This document shows, piece after piece, positions 36,933-44,054 of a stretch of 64,000 nucleotides of DNA (positions are counted from its first letter, which is position 1; each line of letters opens with the position of its first letter). The DNA comes from Candidatus Hermodarchaeota archaeon. GTDB lineage: Archaea > Asgardarchaeota > Thorarchaeia > Thorarchaeales > Thorarchaeaceae. The notes under the pieces are model-generated. The model worked only from the letters and a program-made list of their open reading frames with translations, was not told the origin of the DNA and searched no databases. Location: the NCBI GenBank assembly GCA_048885865.1, contig JBHLLF010000001.1:64001-128000 (forward strand). Reading direction: 5' to 3'. The position numbers were made by a program, and so were the translations under genes.

Positions 36933-38519
36933 CTACTCTACCTCTACTTCGCCTTCCTTGATTTTTAGTTCTCGAAGTGTTGAGACTGCTTTATCTCCCT
37001 TTAATTTCAGTACTCCAAGCTTGTCATACTGACGGACCCATTTCGTCACGAGCCCAACAGGCTGTGCCAATGTCTTTGCAAGATCCGCAATGGGAATCGA
37101 ACCAACCTCATCAACTAAGATGAGCACCTTGGTGCTGGACTCCTGGTTCAGCACGTCTATGTATCTCTTTACCCGTTCATCTGAGATATCTCTCTGCTCT
37201 AAGGCTATGTCTCGTTCTTTCTCCATGAGTCGGGTGGCTTTCTCAAAAGCCTCCTTCTGCATCTCGAGTTTTGGTATCTTATCCTGGGTGGTCTTCAAAT
37301 CCGCCTCCAAATCATAGATTTGCTGCTCCATTTCCTTGATACCTTTTATCTTGTCTTGGATAGCATTGAGTTCGTCGAGTCTGGATTGGCTCTCTGCTTC
37401 CGCAGTTTCTCTCTCCTTCCCAAGACTCTCAGCCTGTCGCTGCAATTCCAGAATCTTGGCCTGGCTCTTGTCAGCTTCAGCACGTTTGTCTTCCAACGCC
37501 TTCTCAACCAAGGCCAATTTGGCCTCTAATGCCTCATACTCAGCATCCGACTTTGTGCTTGCTGTCTTAGCGGCTTCGGCCTCACTCCTGTACACCTCAA
37601 GCTGGCTTTCTGCCTCTTTGTATTTCAAACGGACCTCATTAGCTTCAGCTCGGACAGTATCTAATTCATCCGTTCTAGCTTTGATGGAGGCGTCTTTCTT
37701 CAAAATGTCTTGTTTGAGGGCTTCTACTTTGTCATCATATTCCTTGAGCTTACGAGCTAACTCCTCAGTTGCGGCATCAGCAGTCTTTGACTTGTCTAAT
37801 ATGCTCTGCAATGACTTTATCTCACGCTCGAGCTTTGCTATCTCTGCATCCTTCTCGGCTAGACCGGTCTGAAGCGACATTCCGTCTTCTTCTAGAGTTG
37901 TCATGAAGGACCTTACAATATCCTGCTGCTCCACGATTGTAGTCCTGAGGTCGAGTTCAGACTCTCGCACTCTTTGAGCGAATTCCTTGAATCGCTCTTG
38001 GGTCTGCTCTACAATCTTGTCAACAAGGTCCTTCTCGAGTGCTGCGAATTCATTGTCGACAATGTCCACAAATGTAGCTTCAATGAAGCTCTTGAAGAAC
38101 TTCATTCTGAGTCTTTCGACCATCTCTTCGGAGATTCGCGACTTGAGCTCGACTACCTTTCCCCTGAAGGTCAGAAGTTGGGCTGCAAATACTCCTACGA
38201 CACCTCTCTGTAGTGATGAAATATCGGAGCGTAGATTCTCCAGCTTTCGAAGGAGAGCATCAAATCCTGCCACCGCTTCTCCTGCGTCAAGCGGACTCTC
38301 GCGTCCCTCTGGAATCTCCATACCCTCGACAAACTCCAATGCCACCGCTGCGGCAGAAAGAAGATCATCACTGGAATCCACTGGCATCATGACTGGTTCA
38401 GAATCTTCCAGGCCTTGAGCCATACCCTGGATATGTACTTCATCTAGTGAAGCTTTCTTCAGCGATTCTTGGAGCTTTGCCTTTTCCTCATCCGTCAACT
38501 TCTCGTCGTCAGGAGACAT
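36933..38519 (-). CDS. Long coiled-coil protein with C-terminal winged helix
   Basis: About 290 aa of heptad repeats; C-terminal KVLILV...IADLAKTL...KLGVL; no Walker motifs. Confidence 0.8.
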   Translation of the reverse strand: MSPDDEKLTDEEKAKLQESLKKASLDEVHIQGMAQGLEDSEPVMMPVDSSDDLLSAAAVALEFVEGMEIPEGRESPLDAGEAVAGFDALLRKLENLRSDISSLQRGVVGVFAAQLLTFRGKVVELKSRISEEMVERLRMKFFKSFIEATFVDIVDNEFAALEKDLVDKIVEQTQERFKEFAQRVRESELDLRTTIVEQQDIVRSFMTTLEEDGMSLQTGLAEKDAEIAKLEREIKSLQSILDKSKTADAATEELARKLKEYDDKVEALKQDILKKDASIKARTDELDTVRAEANEVRLKYKEAESQLEVYRSEAEAAKTASTKSDAEYEALEAKLALVEKALEDKRAEADKSQAKILELQRQAESLGKERETAEAESQSRLDELNAIQDKIKGIKEMEQQIYDLEADLKTTQDKIPKLEMQKEAFEKATRLMEKERDIALEQRDISDERVKRYIDVLNQESSTKVLILVDEVGSIPIADLAKTLAQPVGLVTKWVRQYDKLGVLKLKGDKAVSTLRELKIKEGEVEVE

Positions 38520-38847
38520 ATCTATCCCTCAGTGGCCGAGCAAATGATATGAGCATTACGTCAGGTATAAGGTTTGTGAGAACGTATTCGGAAAACGTAT
38601 CCGGTTATTCAAACGCGCTAATTACAGAAAATCAAGGATGCTACGTCTCTCGACGGTTCTCTCCCACACTTCTCAGTCTTCTCAACTCAGAGCAATCTAT
38701 CGGGGGCTGTGGCAATATCCCATTCATACGTAATGTAGCACATCCTCTGACCGGGAGGTCGAGGAGATTTAGCCACCCACAGACTTCTGCCTGTCTATTG
38801 AGCGGTCCAGTCCACGACTTCGTCTGACACCAAGACAGAAGGTAGGT

Positions 38848-39411
38848 CTAGGTTCTTGTGGCATCAAGGAAGTATATGCCTGCGACTATTCCATTCACTG
38901 AGGCAAATCCATACCACCAGAATGGAGGTGGGTTCATCATGCTAGGAACCATTAGTCCCAACGGAAAGGTCACAGCGCCAAAAGCTATGAACACCAAGGT
39001 AGCAACAATGGAAAGCCGACTGAATTCCTCGCGAAGCATCCATGCAGAGATCCCTGCAGTGATCCAGCCCACGCCTGCACTTATTGTCGCAATACCAGTC
39101 ATATCTTCGGCGAACCCAACAGGCAACAACAAGGTGAACATGTCCAAGTACCACAGCAAGGAATAGGTGCAAACCCACAGGATGATGAATATAGCACTGA
39201 TTAACGGAATGACGTTTCCGCTCTTTCGCCATAGCCCAATGATTCCTGTACTCACCAGGATGCGTGCTAGGATCAATATCAAGAGATACTGTTGTGCATT
39301 CCACGGGACATAATCAAAGGCTAAGCCAAGAGCTACTGGGATATACATTGTTGCGATAAGGAAACCGCCAATAGCACCGAGTAAGAACGAGGCTTTTGTT
39401 CCACTACTCAA
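38848..39411 (-). CDS. Hypothetical ~6-TM membrane protein
   Basis: TTG start after GGAGAGG; hydrophobic segments. Confidence 0.72.
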   Translation of the reverse strand: MSSGTKASFLLGAIGGFLIATMYIPVALGLAFDYVPWNAQQYLLILILARILVSTGIIGLWRKSGNVIPLISAIFIILWVCTYSLLWYLDMFTLLLPVGFAEDMTGIATISAGVGWITAGISAWMLREEFSRLSIVATLVFIAFGAVTFPLGLMVPSMMNPPPFWWYGFASVNGIVAGIYFLDATRT

Positions 39412-39429
39412 CGATTCTTTCCTCTCCTA

Positions 39430-39553
39430 AATAGTGTTGAGATGTAAGAAATCACTGCGTTCTCTCAGGCCACCTGAGAGAATCCAAAAGCTGTGTCATA
39501 GATAGGACAACACTGTGACCTAGACTATGTCCGGAGCTTGGACAAAAGGTCTC
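39430..39553. repeat. Copy A of a 124-bp structured non-coding module
   Basis: 103/124 identical to 41404-41527 without gaps (counted by hand). Confidence 0.9.
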
Positions 39554-39612
39554 TGCAACTGATTATAACTGAGTTTTAGCAAATCCAATTCTGATGGCGA
39601 GTCCATTAGACC

Positions 39613-39837
39613 ATGAATGGACTCTACGGCATGATTCAATACCTCAACCCCCAAGAGCCCCGTAATCCTCAGCTCATCCTCATGCGAGCTGCTGAGATTC
39701 CAGATGAGATTCTTCGAGAGATAAGGAAGCACTTTGAGATGGACCTGGATGTGCCGCCTGAACTAGAGAAGAGTGTCACTTTCAGAAGAGAGAAGACCAT
39801 AGCCATCAGGATGATCAAAGGGGTCTTAGATGGATAG
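39613..39837 (+). CDS. Small hypothetical protein or gene fragment
   Basis: 74-aa ORF with protein-like composition. Confidence 0.4.
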   Translation: MNGLYGMIQYLNPQEPRNPQLILMRAAEIPDEILREIRKHFEMDLDVPPELEKSVTFRREKTIAIRMIKGVLDG

Positions 39838-39860
39838 TTCTGACCACATCAGGTCAACGG

Positions 39861-41387
39861 TCATCTACGCTTCAGGAATACCACAGCTACTATTACAACG
39901 ACAGCAGCACCGCCAATGCCAATGAAAAAGAACTCCATTGGCAACGCAGTTGCTTCCATCTCATCAGATGTCAGTCCGTGAGCGTAATAGATGTCAAGCT
40001 CTCCTGCCCTACCATCAGTCCAAACCACATGAGGTCTGCCCTCTGAGTCTAATCGCATTGTGAAGTAGTCACCAGGTCTTGTGAAGCTACTAGATGTACT
40101 TTGATCAGCAATTGCTATTGGATCACCAAAGACCGGGATGTCCAAGGCGGTACCAATGAACTTCACAGTACGGTAGTAGGGACGAAATGATTCATCTTGT
40201 TCATTATAATACGTGATATGGAGAAGCCCCTGTGAATCAATAGATAAGTCAGGTTGCCATTGGTTTCCATCAATTTCATGGTTGATTCTGATACGTTCAC
40301 TCCACGTGTCACCAAAGTCATCCGAATACCGTAGGAAGATGTCAAATTCATCTTGGTCGGGATATGTATCCGCCCAGAGGAAAAACAATCGTCCATCCTG
40401 ATTGAAACGAGCCACTGGAAGTGTTGACTTTGCATGATGATCATTACTGAATGTTAAAGCACTGAAATTGCCATCAGTGTCCACAGTGATATAGTCAGAG
40501 AACGAGTTACCTTGATTCATACTTCTGGCTCCATAGACCGTTCCGAAGAGGTCTATCTGCTCCGGATCCATTCGTAGACCATAATACAGCAAAGCCACAA
40601 AGATGTCGCCATTACTATCCAAGGTGATGTAAGGGCCACCATGCGGCGAATCAGGCGCACCTATGATTGACACATCATTGAAAGTAGCTCCTCCATCAAT
40701 GGACCTAGAGATACGCATTGTAGGGCAATCCAGTTCAGTTTCCATAAATCTAGTCCAGTTTATGTCATCATATGCCACGTAAATGGTCCCATCAGCACCT
40801 ATTGTCATTGTTTCCTTGTCTGCGAATTGGTCATTACTAGATGATGTGGAAGGAGAAGCTGATACTGAGGACCATGAGTTGCCACCGTCATTACTTCTTG
40901 AAACAGTTATCTGAGAGATGTTTGTCGTTCTTGACTGATCGCTCCAGTTATGCTCCACGTAGGCGTAGTAGATAGTGTCATTATGCCACACTAGCCATGG
41001 GTCCGATTGCCGAGTGAAAGAATAGCCATACATTGGCATGTCCAGTGGCTCAGTCCATGTGGACCCTCCATCGTTTGACCTCGAGAAGCTCACACGGGCA
41101 CCACCGCCATAGTCGGTTTCCGCATTCTTCCATCCCGCAAACAGAACTCCATTGTCACTCACTGCAATAGTAGGCTCAACATGCTGAAGCCATGGAAAAT
41201 CTGAAGTTGAGATTAGTTTGTTAGTAGAGAAACCTGCAACCTCGAGAGTTCCTCCTTGTGCTGGAACGTGTTTCTTCCCATCAGGGTGGAGAAGTAGAGT
41301 GTCATTGAATAATACAACCGGCATTACGGAGTAGGAGAGAAGAATCAGCATAACGACGAGATTAGTGGCTTTCCCAGACTGTTTCAT
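39861..41387 (-). CDS. Secreted BNR/Asp-box (sialidase-like) beta-propeller protein with C-terminal TM anchor
   Basis: SNDGGSTW, SNDGGNSW, SIDGGATF, SDDFGDTW Asp boxes. Confidence 0.87.
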   Translation of the reverse strand: MKQSGKATNLVVMLILLSYSVMPVVLFNDTLLLHPDGKKHVPAQGGTLEVAGFSTNKLISTSDFPWLQHVEPTIAVSDNGVLFAGWKNAETDYGGGARVSFSRSNDGGSTWTEPLDMPMYGYSFTRQSDPWLVWHNDTIYYAYVEHNWSDQSRTTNISQITVSRSNDGGNSWSSVSASPSTSSSNDQFADKETMTIGADGTIYVAYDDINWTRFMETELDCPTMRISRSIDGGATFNDVSIIGAPDSPHGGPYITLDSNGDIFVALLYYGLRMDPEQIDLFGTVYGARSMNQGNSFSDYITVDTDGNFSALTFSNDHHAKSTLPVARFNQDGRLFFLWADTYPDQDEFDIFLRYSDDFGDTWSERIRINHEIDGNQWQPDLSIDSQGLLHITYYNEQDESFRPYYRTVKFIGTALDIPVFGDPIAIADQSTSSSFTRPGDYFTMRLDSEGRPHVVWTDGRAGELDIYYAHGLTSDEMEATALPMEFFFIGIGGAAVVVIVAVVFLKRR

Positions 41388-41403
41388 TGATTGGCATACT
41401 CCC

Positions 41404-41527
41404 AATAGTGTTGATATGCAAGAAATCAATACAATCTCTCAGACCAACTGAGAGGATCTTGAAACCGTGTCACGGATATGACAACACTGTGAACCAGAGT
41501 ATGTCCGGAGCTTCGACAAAAGGTCTC
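41404..41527. repeat. Copy B of the 124-bp structured non-coding module
   Basis: See copy A; offset 1974 bp. Confidence 0.9.
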
Positions 41528-41666
41528 CGGAGTTTCTATTTATTCTTGAATGACTTCATAAATTGTAAGAATGATGGAGATGGCGTAGGATGGAACTTTT
41601 ACATCGCCAGAATTATACTGGTTGAATGAAAGCGCTTATGAGAATCAGTTGAATCATCCAAAATTG

Positions 41667-42890
41667 ATGATAGCAAATTCCTCGACCCTCAGAGGACTGA
41701 CGGTGGCAGTGCTTGGATTCAATGCAAGACCAATTGCGTGCTCAGCAACGAGAGCTGGAGCCAGAGTCATTGTATCTGATTATTGGGGTGATGAGGACCT
41801 AGAATCTTGTGCATCAAAATGGAATTCCATTCTAAAAGCCATACCGGGAAAGAGACAAAGAACGCCTTTAGAAAAGCGAGTTCATATTAGCTTGGTTGAA
41901 AACCTGTTGGAATCTATTGATGATGAGGAAATCGACCATGTCTTTGTTGGGAGTGGTTTTGATGATAATACTCAATCACTAGCGCATTTGGAAAAGAGAG
42001 CGCCGATTACAGGCAATTCGATAGTGCAGATGCAAAGAGCGCGAAATAGGTCCGCAGTCGGAAAACTAGCTGAGAGTTTCGGATTACAAGTGCCTCTTAG
42101 CTTCGTTTCGAAAACATTGGATGAAGTATATGCTAGATGCGATGAAGTTGGTTATCCGTGTGTAATTCGTCCTCCCTCATCAGGGGGTGGAACTGGAATC
42201 TCCCTAGTTTCAGATCCCAGCCAAGTAGAGGCAGCATGCTGGAGGCTAGAAGCTGATATAGAGAATCCCGAGGTGATTGTCCAGCAATATATCCCTGGCG
42301 TTGACGGGTCTACAAGCATTCTGTCAACAGGCAACGAGGCATCTGTTCTTTCGATTCAGGGCCAGCTGATTGGTATGCCATCTGCTGGGAGGAATTGTGA
42401 TTTTGTCTATTCTGGCAACTATATGCCTCTTCGTCTTCCCAAGAGAGCGAAACAGCTGATCACCGAAAGCAGTGCATCTCTCTGCACAGATCTCGGACTC
42501 ATGGGCACAAATGGGATTGATTTCCTCGTAGATACTAAGGGGAAATTATGGTTTCTTGAAGTCAATCCGCGGTTTCAAGGTTCTTTAGAAATGCTTGAGC
42601 GAGGAGGACACATTTCCATAACTGAATTACACACTGATGCATGTAATGGCATCCTGCCGTCAGAGCCGCCTTCGTTCATACCATCCACGAAACTTGTGAT
42701 TTTCGCCCGGCGAAGTGGAAAGGTCCCTGCTTTGAGTAATTTCAGCAATACTGTGGATCGCACGCCTCAAGGCGTACTCGTAGACAAAGGTGATCCGGTG
42801 TGTACAGTCTTAGAGACCTCATCCATTCTCCACGATTGCTATGATCGGGCTCTCTCAACCTCGAACGCAATTCAAAGAAAAATCGAGTAA
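41667..42890 (+). CDS. ATP-grasp carboligase (archaeal type)
   Basis: SGGGTG, QQYIPG, GIDF, LEVNPRFQG. Confidence 0.85.
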   Translation: MIANSSTLRGLTVAVLGFNARPIACSATRAGARVIVSDYWGDEDLESCASKWNSILKAIPGKRQRTPLEKRVHISLVENLLESIDDEEIDHVFVGSGFDDNTQSLAHLEKRAPITGNSIVQMQRARNRSAVGKLAESFGLQVPLSFVSKTLDEVYARCDEVGYPCVIRPPSSGGGTGISLVSDPSQVEAACWRLEADIENPEVIVQQYIPGVDGSTSILSTGNEASVLSIQGQLIGMPSAGRNCDFVYSGNYMPLRLPKRAKQLITESSASLCTDLGLMGTNGIDFLVDTKGKLWFLEVNPRFQGSLEMLERGGHISITELHTDACNGILPSEPPSFIPSTKLVIFARRSGKVPALSNFSNTVDRTPQGVLVDKGDPVCTVLETSSILHDCYDRALSTSNAIQRKIE

Positions 42891-42986
42891 TCTGACTATG
42901 ATGAACTCCCAGAAGGAGATTCAGCAAATGTATATCTGGACTAATGCACATTGGATACTTTGTAGAGGAGCCAGAAGGTTAGCCCC

Positions 42987-44054
42987 ATGAAAGTATGTCC
43001 GAAGTGCAACAAATCAAATTTGCCTACGCGGAAGTATTGTATTCGTTGTGCCGCGTCTCTAATAGAACCCCCAAAGAAACGCGCAGTCGTTGATGATGCT
43101 CCCAAACCTGAAGTTCCCGAGATCGGTCACGTGACCACAGGGGCAGACATGGCTCGACAAGCAACTGAGTCAGCAGCTCCTCCTCCGACAACGAACGACA
43201 AATGGGTTAAGCCAAGTGAAGTTTCTCGTGATCGAGTACGTACAGCGTCAAAGGGACGTGGAAAGACTGAGCTGGAAAAGGCACGTGAGGCCTTTGCTAG
43301 AGCTGAGGATGTAGGAATAGATGAAGATGGTACCGGGGTGATTGAGACTCGCATGCTTCGCGCGAGCGAGGTTAGAGAACTCCTTGAAGCCACTCAGGCA
43401 GTTGCAGATGCCCCTGCTCCAATGATGATGGAGGGCTCCGAAACCCTGACTCCTGAAGAAATGGAACTAATGCAGCCTACAATGCCAAAAGCTGAGGCGC
43501 TTGAGGAGCAGATTCTCGGAACTCATTCTGCTTTCGTTTCCTCAGAAGCATCAGATAGGCCAACACCTGAGAAGTCTCTAGACAGCGATGTTTCCGAAGG
43601 GTTTAGTTCCTCTAGATATGAAGAGGAAGATGGAGAGCTTGATTTTAGACTGCCTGAACAAATGCCCACAGTGACTGCAGAAACATTGGCGCCCACACCC
43701 GCTCCAGCCACGGCTCCACCCACTCCTGCTCCAACACCAACACCCACTCCTGAATCAACACAGGCTGAGCCGACAACTGCTGTTTCCTCGGGAGAAGAGG
43801 AGATTGACTTTGTCACCGTCTGCCATAAATGCGGTGAGCCGACGAATATCGACCAGTTCGAGTATCCATTTGAGGTCTATAGTGCCATGGGTGCTGCACG
43901 ACTGAAGCAGGCTCGATTCTATGTCGTGCAAGGTAAGCCGGACCAAGCAAAGGAGGCTCTTAGGATAGCAAGGGCACTCTACAAGAAGGCTAATGATGAA
44001 ACCGGACTGCATGAAACCAAGAAGCTCATTGATTCTCTTGCAAGAGAGGGTTAA
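42987..44054 (+). CDS. Zinc-ribbon protein with long disordered Pro/Thr-rich linker and C-terminal helical (TPR-like) segment
   Basis: CPKC...CIRC, APTPAPATAPPTPAPTPTPTP, CHKC. Confidence 0.75.
   Translation: MKVCPKCNKSNLPTRKYCIRCAASLIEPPKKRAVVDDAPKPEVPEIGHVTTGADMARQATESAAPPPTTNDKWVKPSEVSRDRVRTASKGRGKTELEKAREAFARAEDVGIDEDGTGVIETRMLRASEVRELLEATQAVADAPAPMMMEGSETLTPEEMELMQPTMPKAEALEEQILGTHSAFVSSEASDRPTPEKSLDSDVSEGFSSSRYEEEDGELDFRLPEQMPTVTAETLAPTPAPATAPPTPAPTPTPTPESTQAEPTTAVSSGEEEIDFVTVCHKCGEPTNIDQFEYPFEVYSAMGAARLKQARFYVVQGKPDQAKEALRIARALYKKANDETGLHETKKLIDSLAREG

Follow-up and report, generated by a model that had tools for sequence, protein, structure and literature searches.

The cyclic di-GMP and cyclic GMP-AMP riboswitches of the GEMM-I family (RF01051), described in Geobacter and Vibrio, are leaders of about 100 nucleotides (nt) that occur in many copies before unrelated genes for extracellular and envelope proteins. 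They end at the ribosome-binding site, and their alternative pairings use sequence next to the Shine-Dalgarno motif. In this work we analyzed a DNA module that resembles GEMM-I in these respects and lies in two copies within a 64,000-nt stretch of an Asgard archaeal genome (positions 64,001 to 128,000 of contig JBHLLF010000001.1, Candidatus Hermodarchaeota archaeon, assembly GCA_048885865.1; hereafter the window). Unlike GEMM-I, the module matches no Rfam model, shows covariation in one helix only and has an archaeal host, and its conserved unit includes a promoter, which those of riboswitch families do not. To our knowledge, gene regulation in Asgard archaea is almost unexplored, and descriptions of cis-regulatory RNAs are very scarce for archaea as a whole.

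Three other groups of described elements are comparable in part. Archaeal promoters with operators, such as those of the TrmB/TGM, Lrp-type and NrpR regulons, likewise combine a purine-rich B recognition element (BRE), a T/A-rich box situated some 25 nt ahead of the presumed start and a downstream palindrome, and these regulons also contain transport and hydrolase genes. However, the module is conserved for about 100 nt into the presumed transcript, with a compensatory hairpin, and we know of no named archaeal operator that its motif matches. The 5' untranslated region of Escherichia coli ompA and the long leaders of archaeal S-layer genes similarly have a hairpin at or close to the 5' end, with a strong Shine-Dalgarno motif behind it, on the mRNAs of abundant envelope proteins; these leaders are gene-specific, whereas the module is repeated across at least 16 gene families and its 5'-terminal position is a prediction. 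Correia elements of Neisseria, the BOX and RUP repeats of pneumococcus and integron cassettes resemble it as short repeats that supply expression signals, in the gain of gene cassettes and in the formation of tandem arrays, but the module has no inverted termini, target duplications, attC-like site or integrase and keeps a fixed register to the start codon.

By sequence and by the tests run, the module belongs to none of these systems and is best filed as a new cis-regulatory promoter/leader motif. It appears to be an uncatalogued, conserved promoter-plus-leader unit of about 150 bases in one Thorarchaeota (Asgard) family, and its role as a shared cassette that defines a secretome regulon in that family is well supported. 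It is notable for its archaeal (Asgard) host, for the included promoter and for being tied to the destination of the proteins rather than to a pathway. We consider it probable that the cassette joins an archaeal core promoter (RGAAAC-CCTTATGT) to an RNA-acting leader of about 105 nt, and that the pair in the window arose by recombination within the conserved core.

Copies of the module and the genes behind them

Positions 39430-39553 and 41404-41527 of the window form an ungapped direct repeat of 124 nt with 83% identity (exactly 103/124). The mismatches comprise 12 transitions and 9 transversions and fall 9/5/7 over the three phases, without codon periodicity. On both flanks identity drops to 4-7/20, so that the edges are sharp and the flanks unrelated, and the second copy is found in the whole genome at E=3.6e-31, far past chance. 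Both copies are on the minus strand, where each immediately precedes a GGAG-type Shine-Dalgarno motif and the start codon of a gene unrelated to the other. The whole covariance-model match of copy A spans 39412-39570 (cmsearch 143.9 bits, E=5e-34; also found by nhmmer) and precedes the gene of a 187-aa protein with multiple transmembrane (TM) segments (38848-39411, minus strand), which has no Pfam family and whose orthologues in genomes G004, G010, G015 and G002 are module-bearing. Copy B spans 41388-41544 on the same strand (151.8 bits, E=5e-36) and precedes a 508-aa BNR/Asp-box propeller gene (39861-41387, minus strand; PF13088) with a signal- or TM-like N-terminus. The original prediction, made from the sequence of the window, had described this gapless 103/124 alignment, the excess of transitions, the lack of codon periodicity and the position of the copies before the ribosome-binding sites of two unrelated minus-strand genes, and all of these are borne out.

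The pair is part of a larger set. An iterated nhmmer search of the genome (3.58 Mb in 117 contigs, 87% complete) returned seven copies, with no further match above noise. Two of them are in the window, four are on contig C5, where one module precedes each of four tandem SBP_bac_5 solute-binding paralogues, and one is on contig C26 before the gene of a 110-131-aa protein. Every one of the seven adjoins, at its 3' end, GGAG(G) and a start codon in the same orientation. A covariance model built from these copies (R1) and a broader one built from the resulting matches (R2, 87 matches) were used to search related genomes. Altogether 87 matches, 72 of them distinct, were found in 28 of 86 genomes of the same family, representing 5 of 16 genera, with a maximum of 11 copies in one closed 2.6-Mb genome; R2 recovered an identical set of 28 genomes. 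The 125 genomes searched from 26 other families of the phylum gave no match. Scanning public genomes for the pattern led back to the same lineage, Candidatus Thorarchaeota/Promethearchaeota, and a scan of metagenomes returned 59 stretches of which three were real modules, so that the power to detect covariation was not improved.

The module is uncatalogued. An Rfam scan of the 64-kb window, which had been suggested together with the original prediction, gave no match at the gathering thresholds, and at E<=10 over 39380-41600 it gave five chance-level matches, none of them on the module. In the literature on Asgard promoters, leaders and riboswitches we found no account of it. The original prediction of a portable promoter/leader cassette before unrelated envelope genes is thus strongly supported by seven copies in its own genome and about 70 distinct ones in 28 of 86 genomes. 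A simple duplication confined to the window, which that prediction had named as its alternative, does not agree with these counts.

Among 61 near-full-length distinct copies, 54 have a start codon within -6 to +20 nt of the model end, mostly behind a GGAG-type Shine-Dalgarno motif. The downstream proteins form about 25 clusters, and the cassette precedes at least 16 unrelated gene families. These include the NosD/right-handed beta-helix proteins (15 copies), SBP_bac_5 (8), a 110-aa MPYIVTHSWYP family (8) and the 186-aa multi-TM family (6). Other families recognized by Pfam include beta-lactamase-fold hydrolases, amidohydrolase, alpha/beta hydrolase, metallophosphoesterase, SBBP propeller/DUF7948 and BNR proteins, and several further ones have no Pfam match; for the 110-aa and 187-aa families, a protein atlas offered no clue to function. 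By a simple test, a signal-peptide or TM-like N-terminus is present in 39 of 50 downstream proteins and 12 of 16 families, as compared with 14% of 2,703 background open reading frames (ORFs). As judged from these N-termini, the regulon is essentially a set of secretome and envelope genes.

Extracellular hydrolases, solute-binding proteins and membrane proteins are thought to let Thorarchaeota feed on detrital organic matter, and the module would provide a compact, sequence-defined mark of about 150 nt for the regulon that contains them. Its consensus could serve as a promoter/leader for heterologous expression, as a means to predict co-expressed secretome genes in metagenome-assembled genomes, and as a candidate RNA for in vitro probing. 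Genes may also be gained, and arrays expanded in tandem, through the homology that the module offers, which would be one route to cassette-like genome plasticity.

Promoter and leader anatomy

The conservation profile was derived from the same 61 copies. The first ~13 positions of the model are weakly conserved; conservation starts at UUCGGAAAC-CCUUAUGUC (UUCGGAAACCUUAUGUC) and continues to the start codon. The family consensus at this point, CGGAAAC-CCUUAUGU, has the make-up of an archaeal BRE/TATA element, a purine-rich BRE followed by a T/A-rich box, and the BRE/TATA-like box RGAAACCTTATGT resembles the tRNA promoters of the genome. These carry boxes such as AACCTTAAGTC (tRNA-SeC), GAAAACCCTTAATA (tRNA-Met), CCTTAAAA and CTTTTATA, whose ends lie 25-26 nt ahead of the mature tRNA 5' ends, and a single base separates GGAAAC-CCTTATGT of the module from the tRNA-SeC box. 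From this likeness and spacing we infer that the box is a core promoter, with a start about 23-26 nt further on; the usual archaeal spacing between TATA box and start leads to the same zone. In copy A, the BRE-like GCAGAGA and the TATA-like CCTTTTGT occupy 39542-39556 and the predicted start zone is at 39516-39519; in copy B, CCGGAGA and CCTTTTGT occupy 41516-41530, with a start predicted near 41490 (all minus strand). The conserved TATA-like box itself, at 39542-39549 and 41516-41523, is thus within the repeat, while the AT-rich tracts near 39566 and 41540 that had been proposed as TATA boxes are not conserved family-wide and were probably misplaced by about 15 nt.

A start in this zone implies a leader of about 105 nt with hairpin P1 at the very 5' end of the mRNA. 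Its elements are, in order, P1, a second hairpin (P2), a pyrimidine tract, CAACAC, a strong GGAG Shine-Dalgarno motif and the start codon. In the mRNA sense, the consensus reads BRE/TATA-like box, GAAGCUCCGGACAUAGUCURGUUC, ACAGUGUUGUCAUAUCUAUGACACAGCU (P1) and UCAAGAC in its 5' portion, and UCUCUCAG-UUGGU-CUGAGAGA (P2), ACGCAGCGACUUCUUGCAUUU, CAACACU, AGUAGGAGAGGAGAGA and AUG in its 3' portion. The most conserved stretch is AGUGUUGUCAUAUC, with at least 90% in each column, and conservation extends to about +100 from the predicted start, far past the usual operator zone. Within P1, the 5' half and the loop are near-invariant (about 95% for the 5' half), whereas the 3' half ranges from 50% to 90%, an asymmetry that is poorly explained by either a symmetric DNA operator or a plain hairpin.

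In the window, all leader elements are on the minus strand. P1 of copy A (39489-39514) has the form AGUGU-U-GUCC(U)/loop/AUGAC-ACA-G-CU, with the near-invariant core GUGUUGUC as its 5' strand, and was delimited by RNAalifold and the conservation profile; P1 of copy B, on the same basis, is at 41463-41488. P2 is UCUCUCAG-GUGGC-CUGAGAGA in copy A (39461-39481) and CCUCUCAG-UUGGU-CUGAGAGA in copy B (41435-41455), with a variable loop. The conserved pyrimidine tract of copy A, GAUUUCUUAC at 39444-39453, is a possible anti-Shine-Dalgarno sequence. CAACACU, the complement of GUGUUG in P1 and thereby the partner in an alternative long-range pairing, lies at 39433-39439 in copy A and at 41407-41413 in copy B; family-wide, 92% of the cells of this helix are paired. 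The Shine-Dalgarno motif of copy A is AGGAGAGGA (39420-39428), followed by a TTG start codon at 39411-39409, and that of copy B is GGGAG (41399-41403), followed by ATG at 41387-41385. The pairings named in the original prediction, AGTGTTG/CAACACT, TCTCTCAG/CTGAGAGA and TGTC..GACA, are all present in the sequence.

Partial modules were also found (L039, L057, L058, L059, L100, L091 and L099); some of them consist of the promoter and P1 only, one lacks P1, and one lacks P2 and the pyrimidine tract. They precede DUF169, beta-lactamase-fold, 160-aa and zinc-type oxidoreductase genes. One of them, L039, has a shortened P1 loop and an A-U to G-C compensatory change in the inner P1 stem.

Several candidate functions of the leader were rejected. 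A conserved upstream ORF (ATG-N15-TAG) is present in some copies only; many have no ATG or no stop, and the indels are not multiples of three. AUGACAC would make a poor C box of a Box C/D small RNA, its spacing to CUGA is about 25 nt, and no Rfam snoRNA matches the module. Recognition of UGUCAUAU by a Puf-type RNA-binding protein was rejected because Puf proteins are reported to be absent from archaea, Asgard included (PMC7325665). A search of the genome for a trans-acting complement of the invariant core gave chance-level matches only.

Structure tests and the competing readings

RNAalifold produced two consensus folds of similar energy. The first, at -26.95 kcal/mol, has P1 in an extended form of 10 bp with two bulges, P2 with 8 bp and a helix between the pyrimidine tract and the Shine-Dalgarno motif; in the second, folded without the Shine-Dalgarno motif, GUGUUG pairs with CAACAC and encloses the inner P1 stem and P2, at -26.23 kcal/mol. 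They are near-isoenergetic, and the mutually exclusive folds proposed in the original prediction thus exist as conserved complementarity. However, of the helices in that prediction only CUCUCAG/CUGAGAG (P2) covaries, and the Shine-Dalgarno motif shows no more occlusion than in shuffled controls. In P2, two adjacent pairs change together, from UA to CG in 8 sequences and from CG to UA in 7, and the observed paired fraction and number of double changes were reached by none of 500 shuffles. The P2 loop differs among copies in length and sequence, and a variant stem (UCCUU/AAGGA) occurs together with the consensus one in a single genome, G076. The compensatory changes in P2 and the conservation over about 100 nt of presumed transcript make an RNA-level role of the leader likely.

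On the reading that we prefer, a core promoter joined to an RNA-acting leader, the near-invariant AGUGUUGUCAUAUC/P1 hairpin would stand at the extreme 5' end of the mRNA. The leader would then confer a common fate on these mRNAs, in stability and/or translation, through a factor that recognizes the invariant core and possibly moves GUGUUG between the local ACAC of P1 and the CAACAC beside the Shine-Dalgarno motif. A regulated RNA switch or protein-bound leader and a constitutive leader that stabilizes the mRNA for high expression are about equally likely forms of it, each conceivable and neither of them favored, with DNA-level operators taking the remaining share.

A number of observations weigh against this reading. 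The P2 signal is essentially that of a single paralogue lineage (NosD-type genes in four genera) and thus represents few independent events. For P1, in either register, the covariation test gave no double changes and no excess over shuffles, and the same was found for the GUGUUG:CAACAC closing helix; divergence among the copies, all from one family, is low. Likewise, covariation did not rise above shuffles in the anti-Shine-Dalgarno helix, in the TATA-spanning palindrome (ATGTC/GACAT) or in the CCGGAC/GUCUGG hairpin. Minimum-free-energy z-scores are near 0 for most single copies, and the Shine-Dalgarno motif has an unpaired probability of 0.37 as compared with 0.33 behind shuffled upstream sequence. 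The counts of G-U pairs versus A-C mismatches do not clearly favor either strand. The tRNA boxes are stronger than the TATA-like box CCTTATGT, from whose position both the start site and the leader itself are predicted. Finally, P1 is also a perfect DNA palindrome (TGTCATA-TC-TATGACA) just past the predicted start; together with the copies that consist of promoter and P1 only, this keeps a DNA operator viable for that part of the module.

Further candidate structures and signals were tested and discarded. The CCGGAC-AUA-GUCUGG hairpin between TATA box and start is paired in 58% and was equaled by 56 of 1000 shuffles. The TATA-spanning palindrome ATGTC-N9-GACAT (equivalent to TGTCC-N7-GGACA), which the original prediction had placed over the transcription start as TGTCC-N7-G/CGACA, and a CAAGA/UCUUG helix enclosing P2 showed no covariation in the family alignment, and their pairing of 74-79% was equal to that of shuffles. 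Masking of the Shine-Dalgarno motif by the pyrimidine tract was rejected as not above shuffled controls, only 7% of the leaders being in the lowest decile of accessibility of their own controls. The ratio of transitions to transversions opposite the G/U-rich strand was the same as in the rest of the module.

The main rival is a cassette that works purely at the DNA level, whose palindromes would be bound by dimeric transcription factors, one or several, that regulate the secretome genes together, with no role for RNA structure. Candidate sites would be TCCGGA around the TATA box, TGTCATA-TC-TATGACA after the start and TCTCTCAG-N5-CTGAGAGA, and the second of these is a perfect 7+2+7 palindrome at about +8 to +24, where archaeal repressors typically bind. 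The truncated copies that retain promoter and P1, the missing covariation in P1, the lack of strand asymmetry between wobbles and A-C mismatches and the unremarkable thermodynamic stability all agree with such operators. However, conservation runs on to the Shine-Dalgarno motif, about 100 nt past the predicted start; P2 has compensatory substitutions, and the presence of both P2 versions in one genome would not be tolerable for one sequence-specific factor; and the P1 halves are unequally conserved, unlike those of a symmetric operator. On balance we regard this explanation as unlikely, although it is the best of the competing ones.

A more specific RNA-level proposal is that the leader constitutes a new regulatory RNA class of one Asgard family, either a riboswitch or a protein-recognized 'secretome tag', in which the AGUGUUGUCAUAUC core and the alternative GUGUUG:ACAC and GUGUUG:CAACAC pairings gate translation or the membrane-proximal handling of mRNAs for exported proteins. 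We put this forward as a tentative idea, rather unlikely in this full form.

Still less probable is a ligand-sensing riboswitch in the strict sense, a three-way junction closed by GUGUUG:CAACAC and containing the inner P1 stem and P2, in which ligand binding would free the Shine-Dalgarno motif that is otherwise masked by the pyrimidine tract. The aptamer-like size (about 82 nt), the highly conserved unpaired linkers and loops, the two near-isoenergetic folds and the transitions in CAACAC that keep pairing as U-G (7 sequences) would suit it. So would the multi-copy regulon before extracellular-protein genes, an arrangement known for GEMM-type riboswitches in some bacteria, and the location, with 54 of 61 full-length copies abutting a start codon in the same orientation on a presumed transcript. 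On the other hand, the closing helix and P1 show no covariation, and masking of the Shine-Dalgarno motif, one of the forms that an expression platform can take, is not above controls (0.37 versus 0.33 unpaired). The downstream genes have a cellular location rather than a metabolite in common, variants with P1 or P2 deleted still stand before genes, and the phyletic range is restricted to one family. With compensatory support in P2 only and a Shine-Dalgarno motif that is not over-occluded, a riboswitch-like switch is possible, though unproven.

Recombination at the window pair and age of the copies

The two copies in the window appear to be products of homologous recombination within the module core, by integration of a circle or unequal exchange. 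In G015 and G010 (L060/L075), blastn showed the orthologues of window positions 37000-39553 and 41399-44000 to be contiguous through one module, and a unit of 1,974 bp (39554-41527), composed of a repeat one module long, the BNR gene and a short ORF termed P0002, is absent from this orthologous locus. Compared with the single modules, the window copies form a mosaic: the resident type accounts for the 5' flank and 5' part of copy B and for the 3' part of copy A, which is followed by the resident gene, with the switch point in the invariant CACAGTGTTGTC core, which indicates a crossover within about 20 nt of identical sequence. Such an event would have inserted a foreign module together with the BNR gene and P0002 before the membrane-protein gene. 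Since the best relative of the BNR protein in the 86 family genomes is 52% identical, a gain in this lineage is more parsimonious than repeated loss; a deletion between direct repeats in the relatives is the possible alternative. The same tendency shows in tandem arrays of modules with their genes elsewhere: four solute-binding protein genes on contig C5, three of NosD type in G016, and pairs in both G004 and G076.

The copies themselves appear to be old. Leader identity is 0.74 within the same gene family in different genomes, 0.73 between different families in the same genome and 0.71 between different families in different genomes, and the module is retained orthologously before the same gene families across genera. 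This plateau of identity and the orthologous retention point to old copies held by purifying selection, rather than to recent transposition or concerted evolution. Spread by transposition as a mobile element, either a miniature inverted-repeat transposable element (MITE) or a promoter-carrying repeat for which the position next to genes is incidental, is very improbable and largely refuted: its 7-11 copies per genome, patchy distribution among genera and link to gene gain in the window and to tandem arrays would fit, but there are no inverted repeat pairs in 38000-43000 and hence no terminal inverted repeats, no target duplications (the junctions of the window insertion are inside shared homology), 54 of 61 copies keep a fixed orientation and register to the start codon, the module is retained across genera, and identity levels off near 72% without clustering by genome. 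The features by which the original prediction would have recognized MITE-like, random placement are thus absent. No integrase-like ORF was found beside the modules examined, as an integron-type cassette would have, and the recombinant structure is explained by the crossover in about 20 nt of identity rather than by attI/attC recombination.

A few observations concern the coding sequences next to the modules. Four unrelated module-driven proteins (L020, L066, L063 and L049), namely a 249-aa protein, a beta-lactamase-fold protein, an alpha/beta hydrolase and a metallophosphoesterase, begin alike with MRENRLRA or MR..RLRA. Their common N-termini imply that the shared DNA extends some 8 codons into the ORFs, which would place the ends of past recombination events inside coding sequence. 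Among orthologues of the 186-aa membrane protein, there is an in-frame stop in G015 (L035), and the frame is lost after about 47 codons in G004 (L021); these genes may be pseudogenes or assembly errors. Two more BNR paralogues, 47-49% identical to that of the window, are encoded in the genome at C13:27116-28426 and C14:28986-30311, neither of them at a module match.

P0002, the 74-aa ORF in the inserted segment (39613-39837, plus strand), may be chimeric. At least five genomes (e.g., L016 3721-3825) have its C-terminal half (PELEKSVTFRREKTIAIRMIKGVLDG) again, a short way upstream of the modules that precede 110-aa MPYIVTHSWYP genes and in the orientation of the module; on C26 a TAA breaks it. 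The 17 residues at the N-terminus of the ORF are similar to the flank of a module locus in G004.

On contig C5, the four tandem SBP_bac_5 paralogues (634-697 aa; C5:20421-29478, L015 4422-13478) form an array that ends beside a tRNA-Met gene, and an 11-nt inverted copy of the tRNA 3' end (TGGTAGCGGGT) lies just upstream of the fourth module (C5:27036-27193). In the window, the DNA past the stop of the membrane-protein gene (38700-38848) is conserved across genomes even in the read-through frame and overlaps the 3' end of a convergent ORF (38447-38827, plus strand) that has no Pfam family. On the other side of the pair, an ATP-grasp enzyme gene (41622-42890, plus strand; PF02655) is divergent from module copy B, and the spacer of about 75 nt between them is conserved in G015 and G010.

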